A DNA stretch of 26,670 nucleotides from an uncultured euryarchaeote. Its GTDB lineage: Archaea; Thermoplasmatota; Poseidoniia; Poseidoniales; Poseidoniaceae. The notes below the pieces were generated by a model. It did no database searches and was not told where the DNA came from. It saw only the letters and a program-made list of their open reading frames with translations. Positions 7,785-23,571 of the stretch are shown here, in pieces. Both the position numbers and the translations under genes were made by a program. The first letter of the stretch is position 1. Each line of letters starts with the position of its first letter. The DNA lies in assembly GCA_937899865.1 (NCBI GenBank), contig CALBRH010000015.1, forward strand, positions 1 to 26,670. The letters run 5' to 3'.

Positions 7785-9815
7785 ATGGCGGAGTCGCATT
7801 TTCCTGAACCAGAAGGCGATATTTCTGACGCGGAAAGCCTTGACCCGAACCAATTGGGCTTTATGTGTGGCATAGAGGTTCACCAGCAATTAGCAACAGG
7901 AAAATTGCATTCCCGCCAACCTGGGGATTTGTATGATGTTACGATGGAAACCTTGCCAGATGATTGGCCAAAATTTTCACGAAAATTACGAGCCGCTAGA
8001 GGCGAAGGTGGCAAAATCGACATTGCTGCTAGATTTGAAACACGTCGTAATCGTTCATTTGAATATGTTCAGTCGCCAAATTCTGGTTTGATAGAATTAG
8101 ATGACCAACCTCCCTTGACGCATGACACAGATGCTTTGGAAATCGCTCTAACCACTTCCGCATTACTTGATGCAAACCCAGTTTCTTTACTCCAAACTAT
8201 GCGGAAAACAGTTGTTGATGGCTCGAATACAAGCGGTTTTCAACGAACTACGTTAATTTCGACTGGCGGTACATTACAAACCACCACAGCTCCAGTGGGC
8301 ATCTCGGTATTGTGTTTAGAAGAAGATAGTGCAAGAAAACTTGACACTTATGCAACAGATTCAGGAGAGTGTGTAATTTACAATTTAGATAGGTTGGGCC
8401 TACCTCTAATCGAAATTGCAACAGAACCGGATGTTCAAACTCCAGAACATGCTAAAGAAACCTCAATTGCCTTAGGTAGAACACTACGTCAGACACGTCG
8501 AGTTCGTAGAGGACTTGGAAGTATTAGACAAGATCTCAATGTTTCAATTGCTTGTGGCGATAGAATTGAGATTAAAGGTTGTCAAGACCTAAATTGGATT
8601 CCTCGAATAATTAAGTTAGAAATGGCTAGGCAACTACATTTTTACCGATTGGCAAATACTCTTCGAACCGAGTTATCCTTGCCCCCTCTGCCAAGTGATA
8701 GGCGTCAAGACGATAGTGAAATCGAGGCACAGGTAGAGCAAAAGGTAGCAGAAAAATTGCCATTAGAATTAATTGATGTGACTAAAGATTTTTCAAATTG
8801 CCAATCAAAAATGGTTGTTAATGGTTTAGAACAAACTTTCACAATGCTTGCTTTACCATTACCCGGATTGGCAGGGAAAATCGGCACGAAAACGGTTGAT
8901 TCTGAAGGTGCTCAATTACCAAGACTTGGAAGAGAACTGGCCGGGGCAGCAAAATTAGCTGGAGTAAAAGGTGTATTCCATTCAGATGAATTGCCAGCAT
9001 ACGGTATTGAAGACGAGTATGTAGAAAGCGTACGTTCATCACTTAAGTTGTCAAATAGTGATGGATTTGTGCTATGCTTAGCCCCTAAGTGGCAAGCAGA
9101 ACTTGCCTTGGAAAGCGTCCTATTACGCGCAAGAGCCGCTTGGCACAGAATTCCGCAAGAAGTCCGTAATGTAGTGATAAAGAAAGGCGCGCCCGATGAC
9201 GGCACTACTGCACCAATGAGGCCTCTACCAGGAGGGGCTAGAATGTATCCGGAAACCGATATTCCTAGTCAAAAAATTAGCTCTGAAAAATGGCAGTCAA
9301 TCCTTGAAAACTTACCTATGACAGATAGTCAACGCATGGCAAGAATGGATGAATTTGATGTATCATCAGACCAAAAAGAACAAATTTTGGCAAGGGAATT
9401 AGATGATACATTCGTTGATTATCAAAACGATTTACCGGCTAAAGCATGGGCTGCAGTATTGTTAGAAAACGATGAAGTAGACCCAAGAATATCTAGTCTT
9501 GTTCTATCGGCAAAAGAGCAAGGCGAAATCACTCGGGAATCAATCAATGAGGTGATTGCCTACTTTGCGGATAAAAACCCCGAACTTGATCAAATACTCG
9601 CTTATGCAGAAGAGCATGGGTTGAAACCTGCAGATGAATCCCAACTTGCTGACATAATTTCAGCTGTAGTTGCAGATAGAACAGATTTCATCAAAGAGCG
9701 CGGAATGGGCGCAATTGGGCCATTGATGGGAGTAGTTATGCAGCAAGCAGGTGCGGCAGATGGTAAAGCAGTCAGCGCTTTACTTAAGCAGGCCATACTC
9801 GATTTGACCAAGTGA
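7785..9815 (+). CDS. gatE: Glu-tRNA(Gln) amidotransferase subunit E
   Basis: 'GIEVHQQL', 'VVDGSNTSGFQRT', 'LDRLGLPLIEIAT', 'RGLGSIRQDLNVSI', AspRS-like insert 'HSDELPAYGI', 'RMYPETD', C-terminal Yqey-like tail. Confidence 0.96.
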   Translation: MAESHFPEPEGDISDAESLDPNQLGFMCGIEVHQQLATGKLHSRQPGDLYDVTMETLPDDWPKFSRKLRAARGEGGKIDIAARFETRRNRSFEYVQSPNSGLIELDDQPPLTHDTDALEIALTTSALLDANPVSLLQTMRKTVVDGSNTSGFQRTTLISTGGTLQTTTAPVGISVLCLEEDSARKLDTYATDSGECVIYNLDRLGLPLIEIATEPDVQTPEHAKETSIALGRTLRQTRRVRRGLGSIRQDLNVSIACGDRIEIKGCQDLNWIPRIIKLEMARQLHFYRLANTLRTELSLPPLPSDRRQDDSEIEAQVEQKVAEKLPLELIDVTKDFSNCQSKMVVNGLEQTFTMLALPLPGLAGKIGTKTVDSEGAQLPRLGRELAGAAKLAGVKGVFHSDELPAYGIEDEYVESVRSSLKLSNSDGFVLCLAPKWQAELALESVLLRARAAWHRIPQEVRNVVIKKGAPDDGTTAPMRPLPGGARMYPETDIPSQKISSEKWQSILENLPMTDSQRMARMDEFDVSSDQKEQILARELDDTFVDYQNDLPAKAWAAVLLENDEVDPRISSLVLSAKEQGEITRESINEVIAYFADKNPELDQILAYAEEHGLKPADESQLADIISAVVADRTDFIKERGMGAIGPLMGVVMQQAGAADGKAVSALLKQAILDLTK

Positions 9816-11500
9816 ATAAAATGCGTAAAAAAATGCTTATTTTGGCAATAGTTGCCATTTATTGTCTATCATTCACGCAAGCAGAAACTCCACTAAGTAC
9901 CGAGGAAGAATTTTCACTTCAATGGAATTTAGATTTTGGTGAAGTGTATGTATCAACTCATCCAATAACTTCTGCCGATGCAATATTTGTTCGAACATCA
10001 TCATCTAATTTAGCTCAAGGAATTCCTTCAGTATATTCATTAGATTTTGATGGTAAGGAAAAATGGCAAATGCAAAATGCGAATTCAACAAAGCAAGACA
10101 TGTCTCCCTTAGAATTTGTTAAGGCAGGCAATGGAGACTGCGGCAGTTGGCCTGACATGGTATTAGTTGGCTGGTCAGACGGTTTGTTTCAAGCACTCGA
10201 TGCGCAGGACGGCAGTGTGGTTTGGCAACATCAAACAGAAGTGCTTGGTTGGGGGATTACAGGTAGCATGTTAGTCGAAACAGAAACGGTAACAATTCCA
10301 ACAAGAAATGGCATGGACAAGTTTTGTTTAAACGGCGAGTTGCAATTTACCAAAAGTACCGGTGAGGGTTGGAGAAATGGTGTAACATTTGCTGCACAGT
10401 CATATTGGATTGGCGATGAATCTGGCAGGTTGTGGTCTGTAAACCATCAAGATGCCAATAGCCATTTTATTGCAGAAGGGAAAATCCGCCATGCACCAGT
10501 AAGTTTGTCCAATAATAATCTATTAATTCATCTTCAAACCGCTACAGGTAGCACAATTTATCAATTCAATACAACTTCTAATCAGTCTACAGCAATAGCA
10601 AATTCAGGTTTTGGCCCAGGTATTCCAAAAGTATTCCAAGATTACATCATAACGACAGATTCCCAAAATCTAATGTCGATTTCTTGTCAAAACCTGTGTT
10701 CTGTTATTGATTTTGAAACGTTTCAATCCAATGGCGAAATATCAAACGTATTTGGAAAAATAATGTTGCCACAGAATACGGTTGAGGGAGGATATGGACA
10801 GTTTGAGATATCGAGTGAAGGCCAATTGAACTTCCTCGGCCTTGCCAATTATGATGATGATTGGTATGGTACAGCAGGTATCGAATCGTGGATCATCGAC
10901 GACGAGAAATACATGTTATTGGTTAACGATAATGCAAATTTGAAACTATTGACGAGTAGTTTTAATATAAACGTCGAAGAAAATAATGATGATACTGATT
11001 GGCCAACCATTCTCGTGATGCTTTTTGCTTTAATTTTGATATCTACTACTAGCATTCAACTGCTTAGGGAAAGATTTCAATCAGCATTCAAATTTTTCAT
11101 ACTGTTCTGCACAATTCTGCTATACTTTACCTTCGCTGATATAATTCAAGCATGGGACGACCTAATCAATGAAGATGCGCCGGCATCAGAGGCTTGGAAT
11201 GAGACTTGGCCAGAGGAATGGCTAGGGACACAAGTAATCGTTTTTCAGTTTCAAGATAATTCCGTAGTCACTGGTGGATTATTTGGCCATGATAATGTTC
11301 TACAGTTGACTCAAGCAGCAGCGATTGAGCAGGGTATGGATGTTGAGATAATTGATAGTAGTCTCGGCAAATATGTAGTTAGCATCGACAATATTGCAGG
11401 AGAAGGTTGGGAATATACCGTCAATGGCCAGGCAGGCGCGGTATCTGCTGAATATAGTCAACTTGAATCAGATAGTATAGTAGTATGGAAACAACTCTAG
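9812..11500 (+). CDS. Secreted PQQ/BamB-like beta-propeller + 2 TM helices + C-terminal DUF4430 (transcobalamin C-terminal-like) domain
   Basis: Signal peptide (MRKKMLILAIVAIYCLSFTQA); Trp-docking repeats 'SLDFDGKEKW', 'ALDAQDGSVVW'; TM pair 'WPTILVMLFALILISTTSIQLL' and 'FKFFILFCTILLYFTFA'; C-terminal 'SSLGKYVVSIDNI..GWEYTVNG..GAVSA....L...IVVW' typical of DUF4430. Start is GTG 9812 (overlapping the gatE stop) or ATG 9821. Confidence 0.75.
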   Translation: MNKMRKKMLILAIVAIYCLSFTQAETPLSTEEEFSLQWNLDFGEVYVSTHPITSADAIFVRTSSSNLAQGIPSVYSLDFDGKEKWQMQNANSTKQDMSPLEFVKAGNGDCGSWPDMVLVGWSDGLFQALDAQDGSVVWQHQTEVLGWGITGSMLVETETVTIPTRNGMDKFCLNGELQFTKSTGEGWRNGVTFAAQSYWIGDESGRLWSVNHQDANSHFIAEGKIRHAPVSLSNNNLLIHLQTATGSTIYQFNTTSNQSTAIANSGFGPGIPKVFQDYIITTDSQNLMSISCQNLCSVIDFETFQSNGEISNVFGKIMLPQNTVEGGYGQFEISSEGQLNFLGLANYDDDWYGTAGIESWIIDDEKYMLLVNDNANLKLLTSSFNINVEENNDDTDWPTILVMLFALILISTTSIQLLRERFQSAFKFFILFCTILLYFTFADIIQAWDDLINEDAPASEAWNETWPEEWLGTQVIVFQFQDNSVVTGGLFGHDNVLQLTQAAAIEQGMDVEIIDSSLGKYVVSIDNIAGEGWEYTVNGQAGAVSAEYSQLESDSIVVWKQL

Positions 11501-11540
11501 TTTAGGCAATGCTCAAGACATTCAACCTCTAGGGCTAGGC

Positions 11541-12197
11541 ATGTTCCAGTCATATGGCATCCACGGCCCGGTTCTCGGACCAGTTACTGGATTGGTTATT
11601 GATGTTATTCTGCTTGGATTAGCATTTTGGATGTTAGCCTCGCCAGATATGCGAAAAGCCCCAAATATCCTTACTTTTGTTACCCTTGTAGCAAGCATAT
11701 CATTGCTTAGAGTTGTTATGACTCCACTACCAAATATTCAGCCGGTAACAGTTGCTGCACTGATTGTTGGCGCCCAACTTGGAGTGCGAAGAGGGGTCGC
11801 TTTCGCAGTTTTAGTTGCAATGATTTCTAATTTCATCATTGGTGATGGTATATGGACCTTGTATCAAGCAATTGGTTGGTCAGTAGTAGCTATAATAGGT
11901 GCATATTCAAACATTATAGTCGATGAAAAATTACAGTTGAGCAAGACCTATCTTTATGCGATAGTAACCGCATTTTTATTCGGATTCATTGTGTCTTTAA
12001 GCGTACTTGGAACTGTATCATTCAGCGGTTTTATGATTTATCTACTCAATGGAATTCCTTACGATTTACTTCATGCACTTGGTAATCTAACTATGGCCGC
12101 TTGGTTTGGCACGTGGTTTAGTGATTCAATAGCTAAATTCCAATCATTGGAAGAAATTGAGCAAAAAGTAGTCGATGGATATGTCACGAGAACATGA
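11541..12197 (+). CDS. ECF transporter S component, CbrT-like (predicted cobalamin)
   Basis: About 7 hydrophobic helices (6 core plus one N-terminal). Motifs 'LLR...PLPNIQPVT', 'ISNFIIGDGIWTLYQ..GW' and 'GIPYDLLHALGN' match the CbrT-type S-component pattern as I recall it. Confidence 0.75.
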   Translation: MFQSYGIHGPVLGPVTGLVIDVILLGLAFWMLASPDMRKAPNILTFVTLVASISLLRVVMTPLPNIQPVTVAALIVGAQLGVRRGVAFAVLVAMISNFIIGDGIWTLYQAIGWSVVAIIGAYSNIIVDEKLQLSKTYLYAIVTAFLFGFIVSLSVLGTVSFSGFMIYLLNGIPYDLLHALGNLTMAAWFGTWFSDSIAKFQSLEEIEQKVVDGYVTRT

Positions 12198-12549
12198 TGG
12201 TCCTTCGATGGCCTTGATAGTCAGAAAAGATCTGAAATTATCTGCTGGTAAATTGGCAGTACAATGTTCTCATGCAGCGGTAAACTGCTCATTAACTGCT
12301 AAAAAAACCGAGCCTAGATTAATGGAGCGCTGGCAATCAAATGGAGCACGAAAAATTTGTTTGGCAATAAATGACCTCGAATCATTAAAAATACTGATGG
12401 GCAAATCGAAGTCAGCAGGTTTGATTACTCATTTGATTAAGGACGCTGGCCATACTGAAATTCCGCCTGGGACAATAACGGTTCTTGGTATTGGCCCAGC
12501 ACCAAAAAGCAGTATTGACGCGTTAACTAGCGAACTTAAGCCGTATTAA
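12175..12549 (+). CDS. pth2: Peptidyl-tRNA hydrolase Pth2, copy A (more divergent)
   Basis: 'VRKDLKLSAGKLAVQCSHA', 'DAGHTEIPPGTITVLGIGP'. The start may be ATG 12181; it overlaps the end of the S-component gene. Confidence 0.88.
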   Translation: MDMSREHDGPSMALIVRKDLKLSAGKLAVQCSHAAVNCSLTAKKTEPRLMERWQSNGARKICLAINDLESLKILMGKSKSAGLITHLIKDAGHTEIPPGTITVLGIGPAPKSSIDALTSELKPY

Positions 12550-12977
12550 TGGAGGTGTTTTTTTTGGGTCTTCGTTCCTTTATTCATAGATTAACAGCAC
12601 CAAGGTTTACTTCAGGATTTATCGATAGCCCGGTAAAATTAGTATTAGTAATCAATAACGATCTAAAGATGGGTAAAGGCAAAATTGCAGCCCAAGCAGG
12701 CCATGCATCAGTATCTGCAACTATGAAAGCTGGAGAAAAATCCCCTTCTATACTCGATTCCTGGTTGAAATCCGGCCAGAAAAAAGTCTGCTTGAAAACA
12801 AATTTTGATGACTTAATCGATTTAGAGAACAAAGCAAAATCCACAGGCATTCAAACGGTTAGAATAAACGATGCAGGAAAAACACAAATCCCTAGCGGCT
12901 CGCTTACAGTAATTGCTTTTGGTCCTGACGATGAAGAAAAGTTGGAACAATTAACTGGGCATTTGAAACTTTTATGA
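12549..12977 (+). CDS. pth2: Peptidyl-tRNA hydrolase Pth2, copy B (canonical)
   Basis: 'DLKMGKGKIAAQAGHA', 'W...GQKKV', 'DAGKTQI..GSLTVIAFGP', 'TGHLKLL'; TAATG overlap with copy A. Confidence 0.92.
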   Translation: MEVFFLGLRSFIHRLTAPRFTSGFIDSPVKLVLVINNDLKMGKGKIAAQAGHASVSATMKAGEKSPSILDSWLKSGQKKVCLKTNFDDLIDLENKAKSTGIQTVRINDAGKTQIPSGSLTVIAFGPDDEEKLEQLTGHLKLL

Positions 12978-15094: not shown

Positions 15095-18000
15095 ATGTAC
15101 GGGGGTTCAAATGTGCTAAATTCACTACATAGTATTACCATTGAATCAACCCCTAGCGGTATGCTGATGCCACATTGGCTACAAAAGGCATTAACCGAGA
15201 GTATTGGTAGCAATATCTTGATTTTATACCCGAGTGAAACATCTCGTCAAGCCGCTCTCAATGAATTATCAAGAACAAATTCTGCTATTGATTCGTCAAA
15301 GCATCTAACCATCAAGCGTCTAATCCGTGCATTACTTACCGATTTCCGCCAACCAAATGTCTTTGATGATGATAGTGTTCTACTCTACAAAATACATCAG
15401 GAATGCGTCAATAGGGCGGCCAAAGGCAAGTTTCCGCTATTGCATATAACTGGTAAGAAATGGGGCATTGGAAAGACGCACAGGTTATTACAATTACACC
15501 AAGAGATTGCCAAACTTCCAACAATACCTCCATGGGAATCCGACCCTGGCGTCAAGGAGTTTAGAAATGCTTTACTTGCAATCGAGAAATCATCTTCAGG
15601 AACCCATCCAGATTTGATGCAACATCACTTAAACCGTTTACTCGATAGCATTGACGGAGATAATCTGCCGTTCAGTCTTCGTGAACTGGCCGGCATAATT
15701 ATTCTTGACCATCCACCTGAATTTAGCGAAATAGAGAGAGAAATTTTCTCTAAGATTTCTCAATATGTATCAATTCATCAATTGTGTAATCCGGGTAAAT
15801 TTAGATTGGGATACAGTGGCGCATATTTGCAAGATGTCAAGTGGTGCAATCAATCGGATTTACCGCCATGGGTGCCATTTCACGAGGTCGAACAAGTAGA
15901 TCACGACTCACCATGGTGTTCTAGTGTGTCGGAATACAGAAATTCGCAATATCACAAAGTTGTTGTAGAACATTCTGGACACATAATAGATGCAACAACC
16001 AACCTTCTTGATAGCCTATCGATTGTTCCACAAGACAAGATTTTAATTGTCGATGCAGATTTACAAAACAGAGCTCACAGATGGCAGGAGATGTTACGGC
16101 AGTTGGGAATTTACAGTGCTAACAAAAAACATACAATTAGCCAAGAGCCATTGATTCAAGAATTGATTTATCATTTACAACTTGCTAGTGGCCTTGAAGC
16201 ATGGTCGTTTGAAAGGTTACGGCGGTTTGCCAATAGTACTAACTTCGCCATTAATTTCGATTTAACACATCCGACAAATCCCGAATTACTACCGCGCCCA
16301 CATACAGAGATTTTAGAAAACATATCTCGAAGTTTCCACGTATTAGGCGGCCCGGGAGCTGCTGAGCGTTGGTGCAAAACCTTAGACCAATCACACCAAC
16401 AAATAGGTGATTTTGATGATAGCATGGCAATCAAGCAAGAGGAAACGCAGTGGTGGTTAGCAAATATAATCAATTTATGGAATATTGTTGCAGATATTGA
16501 TTTCGAAATACCAAAGCTTGAAGGTTGTTATAGCGGCGATAAGTTGCCATTAATCGAGCCTCTTGATACACCGATAAAGTTGCTGGAGGCGTTGATAGAA
16601 AGCATAGATTGGACTACAATGATGGCCGATGATGCTCGCTTTAACAACTGTATTTTTGCAGTGGAAGCAGTAAAAGATAAGCTATACGCTATTGATTTAG
16701 AACAAGATTTAGCCGATGATGCCGACTTGAATTTTATTGATTTAGTCAAGCTTGTAATTTCTAATGAATATAATAATGCACCTAGGATTGATTGTGCAAA
16801 TGTTGTGATATGTTCTCCAAGTGATGCGTTTGGACAATCCGCCAATGTTGTAATTTTAGCAGGCTTAGATTCGGAGTCTTGGTCTATGAAACCAACCAAT
16901 GTTCCTTGGTTAGATAATGCTACTAAAGTAAAGTTGGGGTTGGCAAATTCAGATATTAAGGTTAGACAAGGACGTCACGAATTAAGACATATTCTCAACA
17001 GTAGTGATTCAATAATTGTAATTGATACTTCATTGGATGAAGCAGCAAGCCCCAGTCCGCCACTTTCAGAGTGGCTTGATGATGTTAGTGAAGATGAGTC
17101 TATTTTCACTACCTTGCCAACATTTGTTGAACCTGAAGAGTATGATGAAAATAATCGTCAAAGGTCTTGGAATTTGTTAACATCGGATAACAAAAAGGCA
17201 CTCAAACTGAGAATTTTTACTACAGAATATGATGGAAATACACCAATCAGTGTGAAATCTGGCAACAAAGGTCGAGACATTCGCCAACGTGCAGGTCTTG
17301 CATTACAAGATGGAAGGGAAGTAGAACTACTACCTAACAACAAATCATCTCTTGCTATGGCTTACGAATTACCGATAAATAACCGCTTACGGAATTCACA
17401 ACCGATAATGAAGGACATAGATGTAGGGCAATCAATGAATTGGCAAGAGCGAAATAAAATGATTTCATTTTCTTCAATAAATTTACGTCCTGGCGAGAGG
17501 TCTGCTAATTCAAATACGAGAGGGAATACTATTTGGCCCAATTTAGGGTACAAGATAAATGGCATTACTGTAAGTCCAGCAATTGATCCAAGGCCTTTAC
17601 CATTACAGTTAGATTTGCCTGTTACACTACAGGCTGTAATGGGTAATTCACAATCAGCCTTGCTTCCAAAACGATGGTCACCATATCGACTTCAAGCATG
17701 GCTAAAATGCCCAAGGCAAGCATGGCTTACCAATTATTTACAATTAACAAGTCATGAGGTTCAAAATGAAGACCTAGATAATCGAACGCGTGGTTTGTTA
17801 ATGCATGATATCGAAGCAGAAATCATGTCATTAAATGGCGTACCGGTATTTGACAAACCATTGACTAAATCTGTGCCACTGATAGATTCAACTCATAATG
17901 AAATAGATGTGCTTTGGCAAAAAAGCCTTCAATTCCTAGCATCTAAAAGCCCTTGGCTATCGAGAAAAAATGCTGTATCAGTCCATCGTTGCCGCGAGGT

Positions 18001-18733
18001 TATCGGAGTTACGCCAGATGTCTGGCAAGAATATCTTGATGGAGAGATATCGCTAGAGCCCAATGGCAAAATAGCCAATTACCTAACTGCAAGTTTGGCC
18101 TTGAAACATTCTGCTCCTTTGGTTTGTGAGTGGATGATTGCTTCACAATCCAAGTCACAAGTTACGATTACCGGTATAGCCGATGATGGCGAAATAGGAG
18201 AATTCTCTCTAGCAGGAAGGGTTGACAGGGTTGATGAGTTACATATTCCCGGGACCGATAATACTCAAAGATTGATTATAATTAGAGATATGAAAACCGT
18301 CAATGGTCCAAAGGTAAAATTACGTGGAGAAAGACATCGAAGAGCCATTTTTGATGAATTACAACTAGCCCTTTATGCCAAAGCTTGGGAAGCAGCATTT
18401 CCAGATGATAGAGTAATTGGTGTTGGAATTACTGAAGTTGGAGAGAATACAGAATATTATGTGGAAGTCGATCCAGATTATCTCGATGTTGTAGCAGACT
18501 TATCCATCGGAAAAATAACGACATATACATCGAAAACATATCGTGATTTAGATGAGGAAAAAAGCGGTGAAAGCAATGGTTTCCGTGCTTGGTTAGATGA
18601 GCGAATTAGAACTGCTTTACGAGTTGTCGATGGAGCCGAAAAAGGCCATGTTAATCCTACTGTAAGCGATGATTGTAAATTTTGCAAGGTTAGAAGATTA
18701 TGCCCGTCGGCAAAATTGGGGGGTAAATTATGA
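15095..18733 (+). CDS. AddB/AdnA-like protein: degenerate helicase-like N-terminus + Fe-S PD-(D/E)XK nuclease
   Basis: No Walker A seen. 'WSPYRLQAWLKCPRQAW' (Cys1), 'RGLLMH', 'GRVDRVD', 'IRDMKT', 'QLALY', terminal 'CKFCKVRRLC' (Cys2-4). Confidence 0.85.
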   Translation: MYGGSNVLNSLHSITIESTPSGMLMPHWLQKALTESIGSNILILYPSETSRQAALNELSRTNSAIDSSKHLTIKRLIRALLTDFRQPNVFDDDSVLLYKIHQECVNRAAKGKFPLLHITGKKWGIGKTHRLLQLHQEIAKLPTIPPWESDPGVKEFRNALLAIEKSSSGTHPDLMQHHLNRLLDSIDGDNLPFSLRELAGIIILDHPPEFSEIEREIFSKISQYVSIHQLCNPGKFRLGYSGAYLQDVKWCNQSDLPPWVPFHEVEQVDHDSPWCSSVSEYRNSQYHKVVVEHSGHIIDATTNLLDSLSIVPQDKILIVDADLQNRAHRWQEMLRQLGIYSANKKHTISQEPLIQELIYHLQLASGLEAWSFERLRRFANSTNFAINFDLTHPTNPELLPRPHTEILENISRSFHVLGGPGAAERWCKTLDQSHQQIGDFDDSMAIKQEETQWWLANIINLWNIVADIDFEIPKLEGCYSGDKLPLIEPLDTPIKLLEALIESIDWTTMMADDARFNNCIFAVEAVKDKLYAIDLEQDLADDADLNFIDLVKLVISNEYNNAPRIDCANVVICSPSDAFGQSANVVILAGLDSESWSMKPTNVPWLDNATKVKLGLANSDIKVRQGRHELRHILNSSDSIIVIDTSLDEAASPSPPLSEWLDDVSEDESIFTTLPTFVEPEEYDENNRQRSWNLLTSDNKKALKLRIFTTEYDGNTPISVKSGNKGRDIRQRAGLALQDGREVELLPNNKSSLAMAYELPINNRLRNSQPIMKDIDVGQSMNWQERNKMISFSSINLRPGERSANSNTRGNTIWPNLGYKINGITVSPAIDPRPLPLQLDLPVTLQAVMGNSQSALLPKRWSPYRLQAWLKCPRQAWLTNYLQLTSHEVQNEDLDNRTRGLLMHDIEAEIMSLNGVPVFDKPLTKSVPLIDSTHNEIDVLWQKSLQFLASKSPWLSRKNAVSVHRCREVIGVTPDVWQEYLDGEISLEPNGKIANYLTASLALKHSAPLVCEWMIASQSKSQVTITGIADDGEIGEFSLAGRVDRVDELHIPGTDNTQRLIIIRDMKTVNGPKVKLRGERHRRAIFDELQLALYAKAWEAAFPDDRVIGVGITEVGENTEYYVEVDPDYLDVVADLSIGKITTYTSKTYRDLDEEKSGESNGFRAWLDERIRTALRVVDGAEKGHVNPTVSDDCKFCKVRRLCPSAKLGGKL

Positions 18734-21700
18734 ACTTCCCATTTAACAATAGTCAGAAATTAGGTCTCGATATAGACAAACATATTGCCATCGATGCTGG
18801 TGCTGGAACTGGTAAAACTGCAGTTATGGCTGAAAGGTATGTGCAACACTTGCTTGCTGAATATCAACGAGCAAAACAATTACTCCCCAATGGTCCAAGA
18901 GCACCACTCCAAGGCCAAGGAGCGCTACGCTCACCAGCGAGAGAGAGAAGTAATTTGGTGGAATGGAAAGGCTTGTTACCAAGCGAGGTTGTAGCAATTA
19001 CCTTTACTAGAAAAGCAGCATCAGAGTTACGTAATAGAATACGTAAGAGATTGAGTAAAACCGATATTGATTTGTATTCAATTTCAAATGGTGATATCGA
19101 AATGCTGCTAAGCAGCCTCGAAGATGCACCGATATCTACGATTGATGCCTTTTTGTCAAAACTAGTAACACCTTATCTTGATATTTTGACTACCCAGCCG
19201 GCAGGAGAGCAAATCGCAGAATCAAGGTCGCCAATGCTGATTTCCGAAACGATCAATTCTGCTTGGCGCATTAGAACAATTTACGATGCCGATGAAGCAG
19301 GAGTTCTTGGTGACCGTCAAGGATTTATTGATGCAAGAAATAATCTCGCCATTTTACTCGGTGGGCAACGAAATGCAGAGATAGTCTTGGCAGGGTTGTT
19401 GAATACCTCGCTCTTTGTTGAAGAAACCAAGCGAACCATAAAGCAAAAATCAGAGGATAAAGGCATCGAATGGCGGGAAACTGAATTAGTCAATCCCGAT
19501 ATAATTCTAGATTTGATTGGCCATCCTGCAGAACCGTTTATTGACGAACTCTGTACTGAGATAAGAGGTGTGCTAAACAGTTGGTTAGATGTGTATCTCG
19601 AGCACCATTTGCATTATATTTTGGCCTGTGAGCAACAAATCGAAAGTCAAAGCACCAGATTCAATCAATTAGTGGAATTAGCAAGAAATATTCACCCAGA
19701 GGATAGTATTGGTAAACTGCAATGGGTATGGCTGGTGGCGGTTTGTTGTACTTCGAAATCATCACTAGATGGCTCTGAGCATAATCATTTTCCACGCAAT
19801 AGACTACCTAATGCAGATGATTGGCATGGAGGTATTCAAACCAACTCGAATGTCGACTTACCAAAGAAACAAATTGCAGAGGTTTCTGCTCAATCAACAC
19901 CTTTAGCCCAACAATTAAAGAGTATTTTGAATAGTAATCTTGGCCAATTAGCAAAGATACTAGGATGTAGTTCGTATACCTTTGACCCTAGAATACCATT
20001 ATCGTTTTTATCTGAAGAAAGCTCGTTAAATTATATTGAAATCACTGAGGATTTGGCTGCAGAGCCTCCTAATGGCAGAATACGCGTATCCAAACAATTA
20101 CAACTTTCTGTATTACGAGATTTACTAGTTGTCCACAAAGGTTGTCAACAAATTTTAACCCTAAGAAAAATGCAGGAAGGAGTACATGACTTCGACGATA
20201 TACAACGATTAGCAGCGGACTTACTACTCTCCCGCTGCCCGGAAATAGTACGTTACGATTATCCAGTCGAGGTAGTAGATATTCTGGACAATTTAGGTAA
20301 TGAACCATGGTCTGATAATCATATAGATCAAGCGAGACATTTGATTGATGACAAATATCCTCAATGGCGTGATGATTTTGAACGCAGAGTAGGGATTTTG
20401 AAAACAATTAGACAACAATTCCTTGCCTTCATTGTCGATGAATATCAAGATACAAACCCTGCACATTTTAGACTATTATCACGCCTTTGGGGTTCACGAA
20501 GAATCAAAGAAACATCAGATTATCATGGACCATGGGATCCAACAATTTGTATCGTCGGAGACATGAAGCAAAGCATCTATCGATTTAGACAAGCAGAAGT
20601 TACAGTGATGCGTCGTACAGTTGAAAATATTAAACGCATGAACCAAATTGAGTTTGGTAATACTAATTTTGAGTTTAGAACTTTAGATAATGCACGCGAC
20701 CCTAGGCCAATCGCTGGAGTTGATAGTTTCAAAACCAGCGTGAAATCATCAAAGGAATTGCCAAAAAACACTGGTAAATGGAACCAAATAGATTTCAATA
20801 AAACCGATAAAGGAGACATTATTACCGATGATGAAATCATTAAAAATAGAAAATACGGACATATTGATTTGACCTCAAATCACCGTACTGCACACGATTT
20901 AGTAAATACCTTGAACGAAGTATTCGGCGATGTATTCAATGAACGCCACCATAGTTTGCCTGGCGACTATCACGCAAAACCACAACCATTGAAGGCAGCG
21001 AAATTAGACACGCCTCATGGCAAATTGGAATGGTTAATGCCTCTAAAGGTGGATAATTTACCACAAGTAATTGACAATGAATTATTTGACGAATCAAACC
21101 CAACTCGTATCCACTTAGAGCATGAAATGATTGCTTTGAGGTTGCAAAATTTAATTCAAGGAATCCCATGTAAAGTTTGGAATCCATCAAAAATGGAATA
21201 TATGACTCTAGAAAAACCAACCGAGGAAATCAAACCAAGCGATATCACCATCCTAATTCATTCGAGAACCCATATCGCTGATTTAATCGAGCGGCTACAA
21301 GCTAGAGGCATACCGGTTATCTCCGACAAGCAGGGGCAATTACTCACTCAACCGATTGTTGAAAACCTAATGTCTGCACTAGATTTAATCGCTCACCCCA
21401 ATTCAAAATATGCTGCAGCATCATTGGCGAAATCACCAATTATCGGTTTGACAGACAAAGCATTGAATCAGCTATTTTCAACTCATTCAGAATCGGATAA
21501 TTGGTGGCAAACACTTGCAGATACCGTTTCAAATCCTAATGTTGCTAAATTATTATCTCATATAACTAAGCAAATATCGGGCTATAATGTCCACAATATC
21601 CTCAATGATATAATAGATAATTCTGATTTGATGTTTGCTTATTCTGATGATTCGTCTAGACAAAATGCCGAGCAATGGTGCAATTTGGTGTATGAGATTG

Positions 21701-23571
21701 GTAAAGATTGTGGCCATAATCCAGCAGAAATTTTTGCTCAGTTAGAAGCATTACAACACTTAGGAAACAAAGGCCCACAAGCATCAGCAACACCGTCATC
21801 TGGTGCAGTCAAGATTATGACGGTTCACGGCGCTAAAGGTTTGGAATCTAAGGTAGTAGTAGTATCGGGTATTTTCCAAGCAGGTCGTTATGATACCAAC
21901 ATTACTACACGAGAAAATGTGCTTGTGACTCCAGAGATAATTTCTGGGCGAATCAATCCATGGGCTTCGTTAGACCGTCCAGAAGATGGCCTTTGGCAGT
22001 TCACTAAAAATATCAATAGTGCTCAAAATCAAGCAGAGCGAAGAAGAGAATTTTATGTTGCATTAACTAGAGTTGAACATCATTTGATTATCGTAGGAAA
22101 CCCCACCAATAAAGCAGAGATGTGTTCTGAAACTGGATTGATACAGTATACTAGCAAACCTTCAGCTAAAACGATGGGGCATATGTGGATGGAAGCACTG
22201 AGATCGATTGCTCACAAAGGCGAATTGGCCGAATCTCCGTGGTTAAAAACCGATGATATTTTTGGCCAAGAATTAGGCGAATATGGTGAACATGAAGTAT
22301 CATTAGACCCTGTAAGCCTTTACTTTAATTCTCAACTTGGAAAAGGCAATATTAGGTCAATGGCAATTTACCATAGCCCAGATTGTTTCTCCGAAATCAA
22401 ACCGATGACTCCACAACAAAGATGGCAATTAGTCGAGGAAAAAATCGACTCAAAATCAACTATCGCCTTCAACGAGCAAGCGCAAAGAAAGGTGTCACAT
22501 ACATTGAAATTAGGTGCTAATGCCTTAGATAATAGCGTTCAATGCCGCCATCACCATTGGCCGAATAATTTAGCAGATTGGAACAATAATCGTTTGAATA
22601 AACTACTTGAAAACTCAGCAAAAGCCAGCACGGAATCTAGTGTTTTACCATCTGCTATCGAGTTTGGTTTGATGATGCACAGGTTGGTAGAAATCAGTTT
22701 AGATAATCCTAGTAAATATAATACCAAAATTACAGCTCCTCTGCCTGAAAGTTGGTTCAATAAGCCTGAGTATGAATTAACATCCAATCAATCAATTGAG
22801 ATTGTTTTGAGTGAGTTTGGGTTTAACAGAATAGATAAGTCAAGCGCTGAGCGATATGATGCAACCTTCGAGCGAATGCAAAAAGTTGCACAACTAGTCG
22901 ATAATGGGCTAACCGGTAATTACGCGAAGGGCAAGGAAATACATGGAATAGTTGCAGAAGGCCTTAGAACAGAATTGCCATTTTTGTACAATCATTTAGT
23001 TGAGGTAGATACAGCAAGACAGGTATTTAGGAATAGTCAAATGCAGGATATGGCCAATGTGTCCAATGTTGAGATTATTTTCGAGGGAAGGGCAGATTTA
23101 GTAATGGCATACGCAGATGCAGATGGCAAGGGATATTTGCAAGTGATAGATATGAAGACAACTGGATGTTTGTATGGATTTAATCAAGATAATCCGAAAC
23201 AAGGCACACCACTTCAAAATTTCAGCGGAGATATATTCGACAGATATCCATCTAATCCAGCCGAACAAAAAATCATTGACAAATACAAGTATCAATTAAC
23301 CCTGTATTCTAAAGCCCTTGAAGCAATTGAAAATGAGAAACCTGAGGCTGAAAGGAGAATAGTATCACCACCTGCAATCCTAATTGCAGCATCAGGAAGA
23401 ACGGTTGAAATGTCGCAAAAAGAGTATGAACAAGCTAAAGATGAATTAGACGAACAACTATCTTGGATAGGAGAATTAGTAGCCAACCCTCAAAGTCCAA
23501 ACGAACCAGATAGGATGACCATGGAGCATGCTATGATTTGCTGGAATACAGGAATTGAACCGCAAGATTAG
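18730..23571 (+). CDS. AddA/AdnB-like UvrD-family (SF1A) helicase with C-terminal RecB-family nuclease
   Basis: Walker A AGAGTGKT, 'TFTRKAASE', 'STIDAF', 'VDEYQDTN', 'VGDMKQSIYRFR', 'NHRT', 'MTVHGAKGLE', 'FYVALTRVE'; nuclease 'GRADL', 'IDMKT', 'QLTLY'; ATGA overlap with the partner gene. Confidence 0.92.
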   Translation: MNFPFNNSQKLGLDIDKHIAIDAGAGTGKTAVMAERYVQHLLAEYQRAKQLLPNGPRAPLQGQGALRSPARERSNLVEWKGLLPSEVVAITFTRKAASELRNRIRKRLSKTDIDLYSISNGDIEMLLSSLEDAPISTIDAFLSKLVTPYLDILTTQPAGEQIAESRSPMLISETINSAWRIRTIYDADEAGVLGDRQGFIDARNNLAILLGGQRNAEIVLAGLLNTSLFVEETKRTIKQKSEDKGIEWRETELVNPDIILDLIGHPAEPFIDELCTEIRGVLNSWLDVYLEHHLHYILACEQQIESQSTRFNQLVELARNIHPEDSIGKLQWVWLVAVCCTSKSSLDGSEHNHFPRNRLPNADDWHGGIQTNSNVDLPKKQIAEVSAQSTPLAQQLKSILNSNLGQLAKILGCSSYTFDPRIPLSFLSEESSLNYIEITEDLAAEPPNGRIRVSKQLQLSVLRDLLVVHKGCQQILTLRKMQEGVHDFDDIQRLAADLLLSRCPEIVRYDYPVEVVDILDNLGNEPWSDNHIDQARHLIDDKYPQWRDDFERRVGILKTIRQQFLAFIVDEYQDTNPAHFRLLSRLWGSRRIKETSDYHGPWDPTICIVGDMKQSIYRFRQAEVTVMRRTVENIKRMNQIEFGNTNFEFRTLDNARDPRPIAGVDSFKTSVKSSKELPKNTGKWNQIDFNKTDKGDIITDDEIIKNRKYGHIDLTSNHRTAHDLVNTLNEVFGDVFNERHHSLPGDYHAKPQPLKAAKLDTPHGKLEWLMPLKVDNLPQVIDNELFDESNPTRIHLEHEMIALRLQNLIQGIPCKVWNPSKMEYMTLEKPTEEIKPSDITILIHSRTHIADLIERLQARGIPVISDKQGQLLTQPIVENLMSALDLIAHPNSKYAAASLAKSPIIGLTDKALNQLFSTHSESDNWWQTLADTVSNPNVAKLLSHITKQISGYNVHNILNDIIDNSDLMFAYSDDSSRQNAEQWCNLVYEIGKDCGHNPAEIFAQLEALQHLGNKGPQASATPSSGAVKIMTVHGAKGLESKVVVVSGIFQAGRYDTNITTRENVLVTPEIISGRINPWASLDRPEDGLWQFTKNINSAQNQAERRREFYVALTRVEHHLIIVGNPTNKAEMCSETGLIQYTSKPSAKTMGHMWMEALRSIAHKGELAESPWLKTDDIFGQELGEYGEHEVSLDPVSLYFNSQLGKGNIRSMAIYHSPDCFSEIKPMTPQQRWQLVEEKIDSKSTIAFNEQAQRKVSHTLKLGANALDNSVQCRHHHWPNNLADWNNNRLNKLLENSAKASTESSVLPSAIEFGLMMHRLVEISLDNPSKYNTKITAPLPESWFNKPEYELTSNQSIEIVLSEFGFNRIDKSSAERYDATFERMQKVAQLVDNGLTGNYAKGKEIHGIVAEGLRTELPFLYNHLVEVDTARQVFRNSQMQDMANVSNVEIIFEGRADLVMAYADADGKGYLQVIDMKTTGCLYGFNQDNPKQGTPLQNFSGDIFDRYPSNPAEQKIIDKYKYQLTLYSKALEAIENEKPEAERRIVSPPAILIAASGRTVEMSQKEYEQAKDELDEQLSWIGELVANPQSPNEPDRMTMEHAMICWNTGIEPQD

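Follow-up and report, generated by a model that had tools for sequence, protein, structure and literature searches.

A two-gene candidate for corrinoid uptake without an energy-coupling factor module in marine Poseidoniales

How do the Poseidoniales obtain vitamin B12? These marine group II (MGII) archaea are treated as B12 auxotrophs (PMC9296465), and no specific transporter is named for them in the literature searched. The question is raised by two adjacent genes of an uncultured Poseidoniaceae euryarchaeote, located on a stretch of 26,670 nucleotides (nt) of contig CALBRH010000015.1 (assembly GCA_937899865.1), which is termed the window hereafter. The open reading frames ORF1 (9812..11500; 562 amino acids (aa)) and ORF2 (11541..12197; 218 aa) lie co-directionally on the + strand with a gap of 40 nt, and all parts of them described below share this orientation. 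A previous interpretation made from the DNA letters, referred to here as the sequence-only reading, had described a DUF4430-type gene followed after 40 nt by a CbrT-like energy-coupling factor (ECF) S component, and had proposed a corrinoid capture module. Both ORFs were confirmed at these positions. Based on the results given below, ORF1 and ORF2 probably form, with a probability of about 0.6, an ECF-less CbrS/CbrT-type corrinoid (vitamin B12) capture and uptake complex, for which we infer the ligand, the physical association and the ATP-independent transport. The pair is the best candidate for B12 uptake in the B12-dependent Poseidoniales.

ORF2 encodes a membrane carrier of the S-component type that was assigned to the CbrT family. 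When its sequence was compared with the PDB sequences by phmmer, the only match was the 182-aa membrane chain of entry 6FNP (6fnp_A; E 8.8e-18), and no other solved S component was matched. A profile built from 26 homologues again retrieved this chain as the sole match (E 3e-21), with aa 42-187 of ORF2 aligned to residues 10-159 of 182. 6FNP is the vitamin B12 transporter ECF-CbrT of L. delbrueckii, and the matched chain was taken to be CbrT on account of its size, of the label 'membrane protein' and of what the entry is composed of (PMC5997447). ECF-CbrT transports cobalamin and cobinamide, and hemin does not compete (PMC5997447). The CbrT-aligned core of ORF2 (aa 42-187; 11664..12101) is marked by the common motifs PNxQPVT, ISN, GIWTL.Q and D(L)xHAxGN. 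It is preceded by an additional N-terminal helix (aa 1-41; 11541..11663), which according to alignment and hydropathy is without counterpart in L. delbrueckii CbrT, and in which F2, G6, H8, G9 and P10 are invariant across the 26 aligned homologues. The hydropathy of ORF2 indicated this helix in addition to the S-component helices; the chain was modelled within a co-fold with ORF1 only, where it reached a predicted local distance difference test (pLDDT) value of 78-80.

The family models gave a compatible picture. In a six-frame search of the genome, PF20221 (DUF6580) matched ORF2 with 33.3 bits, as compared to a cut-off of 27. Most ORF2 homologues carry a precomputed PF20221 match, and some are labelled "ECF S component" by JGI. 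By contrast, no Pfam family was listed up to E 1 when the ORF2 protein (11541-12194) was submitted to hmmscan; this blank is likely a filter effect on a membrane protein and is unreliable here. The CbrT-like assignment of the sequence-only reading was borne out by these results, in which no S component of a non-B12 system appeared.

ORF1 encodes a membrane-tethered extracellular protein, the architecture of which was derived from hydropathy and an AlphaFold2 model (pLDDT 83). Its start is ambiguous between GTG 9812, which overlaps the gatE stop, ATG 9821 and ATG 9833, and a database gene call gives a 555-aa form. The N-terminal hydrophobic segment (aa 8-26; 9833..9889; model helix 3-17) would be a signal peptide or an anchor. 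It is followed in the model by an 8-bladed BamB/PQQ-like beta-propeller (aa 34-382; 9911..10957), a two-helix membrane hairpin (aa 397-418 and 422-452; 11000..11167; model and hydropathy) and a DUF4430, or transcobalamin-beta-like, domain (aa 474-561; 11231..11494). Since a signal is present at the N-terminus and is followed by a two-helix hairpin, the propeller and the DUF4430 domain should both face the outside of the cell. The top Foldseek matches of the propeller were BamB and designed propellers of 8-10 blades (E about 1e-15), and PF13360 matched with E 3e-5, i.e., under its cut-off. Bacteroides BtuG is a surface beta-propeller that binds B12, and the predicted propeller of ORF1 would likewise be surface-exposed in a context of B12 capture. 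However, a role as a BtuG-like binder was rejected for ORF1: the top matches were of the 8-bladed BamB/PQQ type, and no BtuG was present among the top 50 Foldseek matches. The propeller, the hairpin and the extra helix of ORF2 were not part of the sequence-only reading.

The C-terminal domain of ORF1 was folded separately since Foldseek on the whole protein was swamped by propellers. With 30 homologues, a pLDDT of 92 was obtained, and the 19 best PDB matches of this model were all either 3U7Z (DUF4430) or beta domains of intrinsic factor, transcobalamin or haptocorrin. These matches had probability 1.0, template modelling scores of 0.6-0.78 and sequence identities of 10-16%. A sequence profile of the domain found no match at E up to 10 among the PDB sequences, and the link to transcobalamin is therefore structural. 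PF14478 narrowly passed its cut-off on aa 504-560 of ORF1 (24.2 bits vs 23.8), scored 28.8 bits in the six-frame genome search and reached up to 40 bits in homologues from marine group IIb (MGIIb); NCBI labels ORF1 homologues "DUF4430 domain-containing protein". Thus, the C-terminal DUF4430 assignment made previously was upheld, and the model has the transcobalamin beta fold. ORF1 resembles the beta domains of transcobalamin (including the human protein), intrinsic factor and haptocorrin and bacterial DUF4430 (5NO0, 2PMV, 4KKI, 3U7Z) in the fold of this C-terminal domain, with the Pfam DUF4430 model at cut-off. It differs from the transcobalamin-type carriers in that it lacks an alpha domain and is membrane-tethered by the carrier rather than circulating. 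A second DUF4430 match, in a frame of 511-552 aa away from the carrier gene, was seen in four genomes of the same genus (G032:C34, G036:C12, G044:C1 and G046:C7); these frames are possibly a paralogue of ORF1.

Binding between the two proteins was supported by structure prediction. ORF2 and aa 390-562 of ORF1, each with its own alignment, were co-folded in three runs, which scored 0.64, 0.65 and 0.66 (0.65 overall), as compared to 0.01 for the best of three controls. Of 80 solved complexes, 58 attained a score of 0.65, as did 2 of 110 mismatched pairs; these counts are rough since custom alignments were used. Agreement of contacts between the runs was at least 79%, with a pLDDT of at least 79 for the partner. 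In the predicted complex, ORF1 helix 423-453 lies along residues 166-188 of ORF2, its last and most conserved helix, and the DUF4430 domain (518-546) is placed on residues 1-4 of ORF2 and on its PNIQ loop (63-66). We know of no solved complex of a DUF4430 protein with an S component that the model could have memorised.

The source assembly (2.01 Mb, 65 contigs, 91% complete) is of metagenome-assembled genome (MAG) grade, as are the other genomes compared, and 81 Poseidoniales genomes were used for the order-wide counts. With a clade-specific profile, an ORF2 homologue was detected in 80 of the 81 genomes, with one copy each; the less sensitive Pfam model PF20221 found 61. The DUF4430 Pfam model matched 63 genomes, and a beta-domain profile made for marine group IIa (MGIIa) matched 38 of the 39 other MGIIa genomes. 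In 76/81 genomes, a same-strand DUF4430/beta-domain gene was the direct upstream neighbour of the carrier gene, as determined by comparing match coordinates by hand. The five exceptions comprised three g17 genomes in which the two genes are found on separate contigs, a genome that gave no DUF4430 match and a genome with neither gene. In seven of the 76, the DUF4430 match was 0.8-2.2 kb upstream, within a frame of 676-712 aa. Close homologues of ORF1 and ORF2 came from marine metagenomes and from records of Candidatus Poseidoniaceae (MGIIa).

Comparison of the two subgroups separates the core of ORF1 from its additions. Most MGIIb DUF4430 proteins are short (open frames of 163-226 aa), and at the MGIIb locus L018 the 210-aa protein consists only of two membrane helices and the DUF4430 domain. 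The gene order there (gatE, 210-aa DUF4430 protein, 216-aa carrier, pth2) equals that of the window. Judged from open-frame lengths, the propeller is present in the MGIIa homologues and missing from most MGIIb ones, and on this sequence basis it is classed as an MGIIa add-on to a conserved core of hairpin, DUF4430 domain and carrier. As to its role, the propeller could fix ORF1 within the cell envelope, or it could bind a partner that carries B12.

The order appears to need B12 and to lack its synthesis. The window's own genome encodes the large subunit and the small B12-binding subunit of methylmalonyl-CoA mutase, a PduO-type adenosyltransferase and, at G000:C25:1-1672 (L005), a fusion of a B12-binding domain with a MeaB GTPase that is cut by the contig end. 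Relatives have IcmF-like frames of 1100-1200 aa that include a mutase domain, and a fused mutase of this kind is probably present in the order in addition to the split methylmalonyl-CoA mutase. MM_CoA_mutase was matched in 79/81 genomes. Genus g4 had been considered as a lineage without pair and mutase, as no Pfam matches had been obtained for it; this was rejected, since clade-specific profiles find both. Therefore, no phyletic contrast is available, and the pair is universal. A search for CobS gave no match in any of the 81 genomes, own genome included. Of the B12 clients that the sequence-only reading had named, the mutase was found, so that its check for B12-dependent enzymes came out in its favour, and class II ribonucleotide reductase (RNR) was not. 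RNR as a B12 client was rejected: NrdB adjoins, the score is below the NrdJ cut-off, and the enzyme is therefore class I. Concerning MetH, a search of the own genome for B12-binding domains gave only the mutase small subunit and the MeaB fusion.

Other routes for B12 were likewise not found. The best match of the own genome to a FecCD/BtuC permease scored 22.5 bits vs a cut-off of 26.5. EcfT (PF02361) was not found in the window or in any of the 81 genomes, two of which are single contigs, and the same search matched 11/14 control genomes, archaea included. Among 11 genomes of the genus, no ATP-binding cassette (ABC) ATPase passed the EcfA cut-off (TIGR04520; best 153 vs 315 bits), and the own genome yielded no second ECF S component. 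The lack of EcfT, of a BtuC-type permease over cut-off and of a cobalamin riboswitch, which the sequence-only reading had noted for the window, holds there and extends to the 91%-complete genome. It had left open whether the S component is solitary or shares a module. Since EcfT is found in 0/81 genomes and no ATPase reaches the EcfA cut-off, the carrier is solitary, as far as genome searches can show, and a module-sharing carrier was rejected because EcfT, an EcfA over cut-off and any other S component were all missing.

For the ECF-less corrinoid uptake complex, the following mode of action is proposed. ORF1 would be held in the cytoplasmic membrane by its hairpin, with the DUF4430 domain, plus the propeller in MGIIa, exposed outside. 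Docking of the hairpin on the last helix of ORF2 would place the DUF4430 domain above the carrier's opening to the outside. B12 may then be caught between the DUF4430 domain and the carrier, much as transcobalamin holds it between its alpha and its beta domain. ORF2 would move B12 across the membrane by S-component toppling, without an ECF ATPase module or ATP, and intracellular trapping by the PduO adenosyltransferase, MeaB and the mutases would pull uptake. Solitary S-component-type proteins provide precedents. BtuM has been proposed to import B12 without an ECF module (PMC6072759), and a solitary BioY is cited in PMC11109136 as a case of an ECF-less S component.

Several points weigh against this proposal. 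First, solitary L. delbrueckii CbrT without the ECF module gave no B12-dependent growth of E. coli (PMC5997447), so that there is no direct precedent for a CbrT homologue that transports independently of ATP. Second, the 6FNP structure is apo and does not define the ligand-binding residues of CbrT, so that conservation of the binding site in ORF2 cannot be checked. Third, the locus has no B12-specific neighbours (gatE, pth2 and threonine aldolase genes surround the pair); neither nrdJ nor pduO is linked, and PduO is encoded on another contig. Fourth, a cobalamin riboswitch was not found in the window (Rfam), in the genome (RF00174) or in 11 loci of ORF2 homologues, in which the sole Rfam match was a T-box leader before a pheS-like gene. 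Fifth, the lineage is apparently a haem auxotroph as well: ALAD (PF00490) was found in only 14/81 genomes and in 8/17 of the window's genus, and it was not found in the own genome, which yet encodes subunit I of the haem-copper oxidase (COX1). Sixth, haem uptake was reported for a related ECF system of L. sakei that includes proteins similar to the alpha and the beta domain of transcobalamin (bioRxiv 10.1101/864751). Finally, the genomes compared are MAG-grade, with the own assembly 91% complete. Thus, the anatomy and the families given by the sequence-only reading stand; the corrinoid specificity that it assigned to the pair is still a matter of interpretation, given the missing riboswitch and B12 neighbours and the apparent haem auxotrophy.

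A stronger and rather doubtful version of the proposal goes further. The hairpin-anchored DUF4430 protein would be an obligate subunit that replaces the ECF module, import would be trap-driven and ATP-independent, and the device might serve as a general tetrapyrrole gate, since the order appears to lack both cobalamin and haem synthesis. The second helix of ORF1 would then occupy the S-component face and the beta domain would cap the pocket, which would create a composite, transcobalamin-like sandwich site.

Haem, or tetrapyrroles generally, may also be the ligand in place of B12 specifically. In this case, haem set free by the lysis of plankton would be caught by the DUF4430 domain, and the carrier would supply the haem-copper oxidase and other haem proteins. 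The scarcity of ALAD, an early step shared by all tetrapyrrole syntheses, and its absence from a genome with COX1 favour this view and fit the apparent haem auxotrophy of MGII (bioRxiv 10.1101/2021.01.11.426183). In addition, no FecCD-type haem/siderophore permease passed the cut-off in the own genome, and the ECF-like operon of L. sakei with its exported transcobalamin beta- and alpha-like proteins has been linked to haem uptake (bioRxiv 10.1101/864751). However, the S component of 6FNP is the sole relative of ORF2 with a solved structure, and its B12 transport is not inhibited by hemin (PMC5997447); moreover, every characterised domain with the DUF4430 fold is a beta domain that binds cobalamin. 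All 14 ALAD-bearing genomes, which may produce haem themselves, keep the ORF2 homologue and the upstream DUF4430/beta-domain gene, a retention which fits the order-wide loss of CobS better. Haem could also enter via peptide-type ABC systems, among which dppABCDF has been discussed (bioRxiv 10.1101/2021.01.11.426183). Import of haem, or of tetrapyrroles generally, was considered unlikely, but haem is a serious rival to B12 as the substrate.

Alternatively, ORF2 could be an ordinary ATP-driven S component with a motor that was missed, either because its T component is very divergent or because a generic ABC ATPase was recruited. The inactivity of L. delbrueckii CbrT without its module (PMC5997447) would be explained in this way, the own genome has about 31 ABC ATPase matches, and the distant homologues P0356, P0358 and P0363 are fused to ABC ATPase domains. 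Against this stand the order-wide absence of PF02361, single-contig genomes included, from a search that recovered it in most controls, and the distance of every ATPase from the EcfA cut-off. In addition, the own genome has no other ECF S component for which a shared module would be worth keeping, and no ATPase or T-like gene is located within the conserved gatE-ORF1-ORF2-pth2 block. A missed motor therefore appears quite improbable. That the pair is not an importer at all and acts as a surface receptor, sensor or cell-envelope factor for another ligand is very improbable: the S-component fold is common to sensor domains (PMC11109136), no part in the handling of B12 is known for the BamB-like propeller and the conserved neighbours are housekeeping genes, but ORF2 lacks an output domain and is specifically similar to a proven transporter subunit, the DUF4430-plus-carrier pairing recurs outside the order, and the propeller is missing from most MGIIb homologues.

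The ECF-less corrinoid complex may be compared with characterised systems. Both the profile and the motifs show ORF2 to be clearly homologous to the S component of ECF-CbrT. The archaeal system differs in that L. delbrueckii CbrT needs its module, whereas EcfA, EcfA' and EcfT are not detectable in Poseidoniales, in that ORF2 has the extra N-terminal helix, and in that ORF1 is hairpin-anchored and carries a propeller in MGIIa. As a further common point, the organism is a B12 auxotroph with a PduO adenosyltransferase. BtuM of Thiobacillus denitrificans (PMC6072759) is similarly a small membrane protein of the S-component type from an organism without an ECF module. However, BtuM has no detectable sequence similarity to ORF2, and no BtuM chain was present among the PDB matches (E up to 10; profile E up to 1). 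Moreover, BtuM works without an exported binder, whereas the DUF4430 partner described here is conserved and predicted to dock. The L. sakei system Lsa1836-1840 (bioRxiv 10.1101/864751) also combines an S component with an exported transcobalamin-beta-like protein; it differs in possessing A and T components of its own as well as an alpha-like protein encoded separately, and in the reported ligand haem, as the archaeal pair has neither a motor nor an alpha-like protein.

The pairing is not restricted to the order. An exhaustive search for ORF2 homologues gave 940 representatives at E up to 0.001, and the genomic contexts of seven were viewed. In five of these, a DUF4430 gene was located directly before the carrier gene, often overlapping it; four of the five are not MGII-like, and the fifth (L028) has the synteny of the window. 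In L. delbrueckii, cbrT sits in an nrdJ-cbrS-cbrT-pduO cluster (PMC5997447). The five contexts may resemble this cluster in having a small DUF4430 gene directly before the carrier, provided that CbrS is a DUF4430 protein; unlike in that cluster, neither nrdJ nor pduO is linked to the archaeal pair. At L021 (1258-4525), an ORF2 homologue of 174 aa, P0267, is encoded two small genes downstream of a class II, i.e., B12-dependent, RNR. The L021 contig is phage-like, with HNH endonuclease, nucleotide kinase and lysin-like genes, and P0267 may be a phage-borne B12 carrier.

Some distant homologues are fusion proteins. In P0296, P0306, P0307, P0315 and P0338 (490-660 aa), the S-component domain is fused to an alpha/alpha toroid similar to prenyltransferases and squalene-hopene cyclases, and in P0356, P0358 and P0363 the partner is an ABC ATPase domain. 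Since a geranylgeranyltransferase-like protein of L. sakei was described as the equivalent of the transcobalamin alpha domain (bioRxiv 10.1101/864751), the toroid fusions may, by analogy, be carrier-plus-alpha-domain proteins.

The pair is embedded in a tightly packed block on the + strand with the order gatE, ORF1, ORF2, pth2 copy A, pth2 copy B and a gene for a threonine-aldolase-type lyase. gatE (7785..9815, + strand), the stop of which overlaps the GTG of ORF1, is the conserved upstream neighbour, MGIIb included, and pth2 copy A (12175..12549, + strand), which overlaps the end of ORF2 by 23 nt, is the conserved downstream neighbour. Two tandem, divergent genes for Pth2 (peptidyl-tRNA hydrolase) are present in the window (12175-12977), while a single pth2 follows the carrier gene at the MGIIb locus L018 and at L028. 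Further downstream (15095-23571), two large coupled genes of 1212 and 1613 aa encode a PD-(D/E)XK nuclease protein and a helicase of the UvrD type that bears a nuclease at its C-terminus. They resemble a bacterial AddAB-type pair, here in an archaeal genome, and the same gene follows the pair in L028.

The design of DUF4430 plus CbrT is already known from bacteria, and no paper describing the pair in Poseidoniales was found in the literature searched. New are the order-wide absence of the ECF motor in searches, the near-universal adjacency of the two genes, the hairpin-tethered architecture with its predicted complex, the propeller fusion and the extra helix of ORF2. A whole order thus keeps a CbrT-type carrier without an ECF motor, though the bacterial prototype needs one, and transport by a solitary S component can therefore be tested with a defined two-gene system.

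MGII archaea belong to the most abundant microbes of the surface ocean and are uncultured. For them, the pair provides a concrete single-copy candidate for B12 transport, present in 80/81 genomes, which could mark B12 demand in metagenomes and metatranscriptomes. Given the parallel lack of ALAD, their culturing may need both B12 and haem to be supplied. If the view of the pair as a tetrapyrrole gate holds true, this device would serve one of the most abundant archaeal groups of the ocean.

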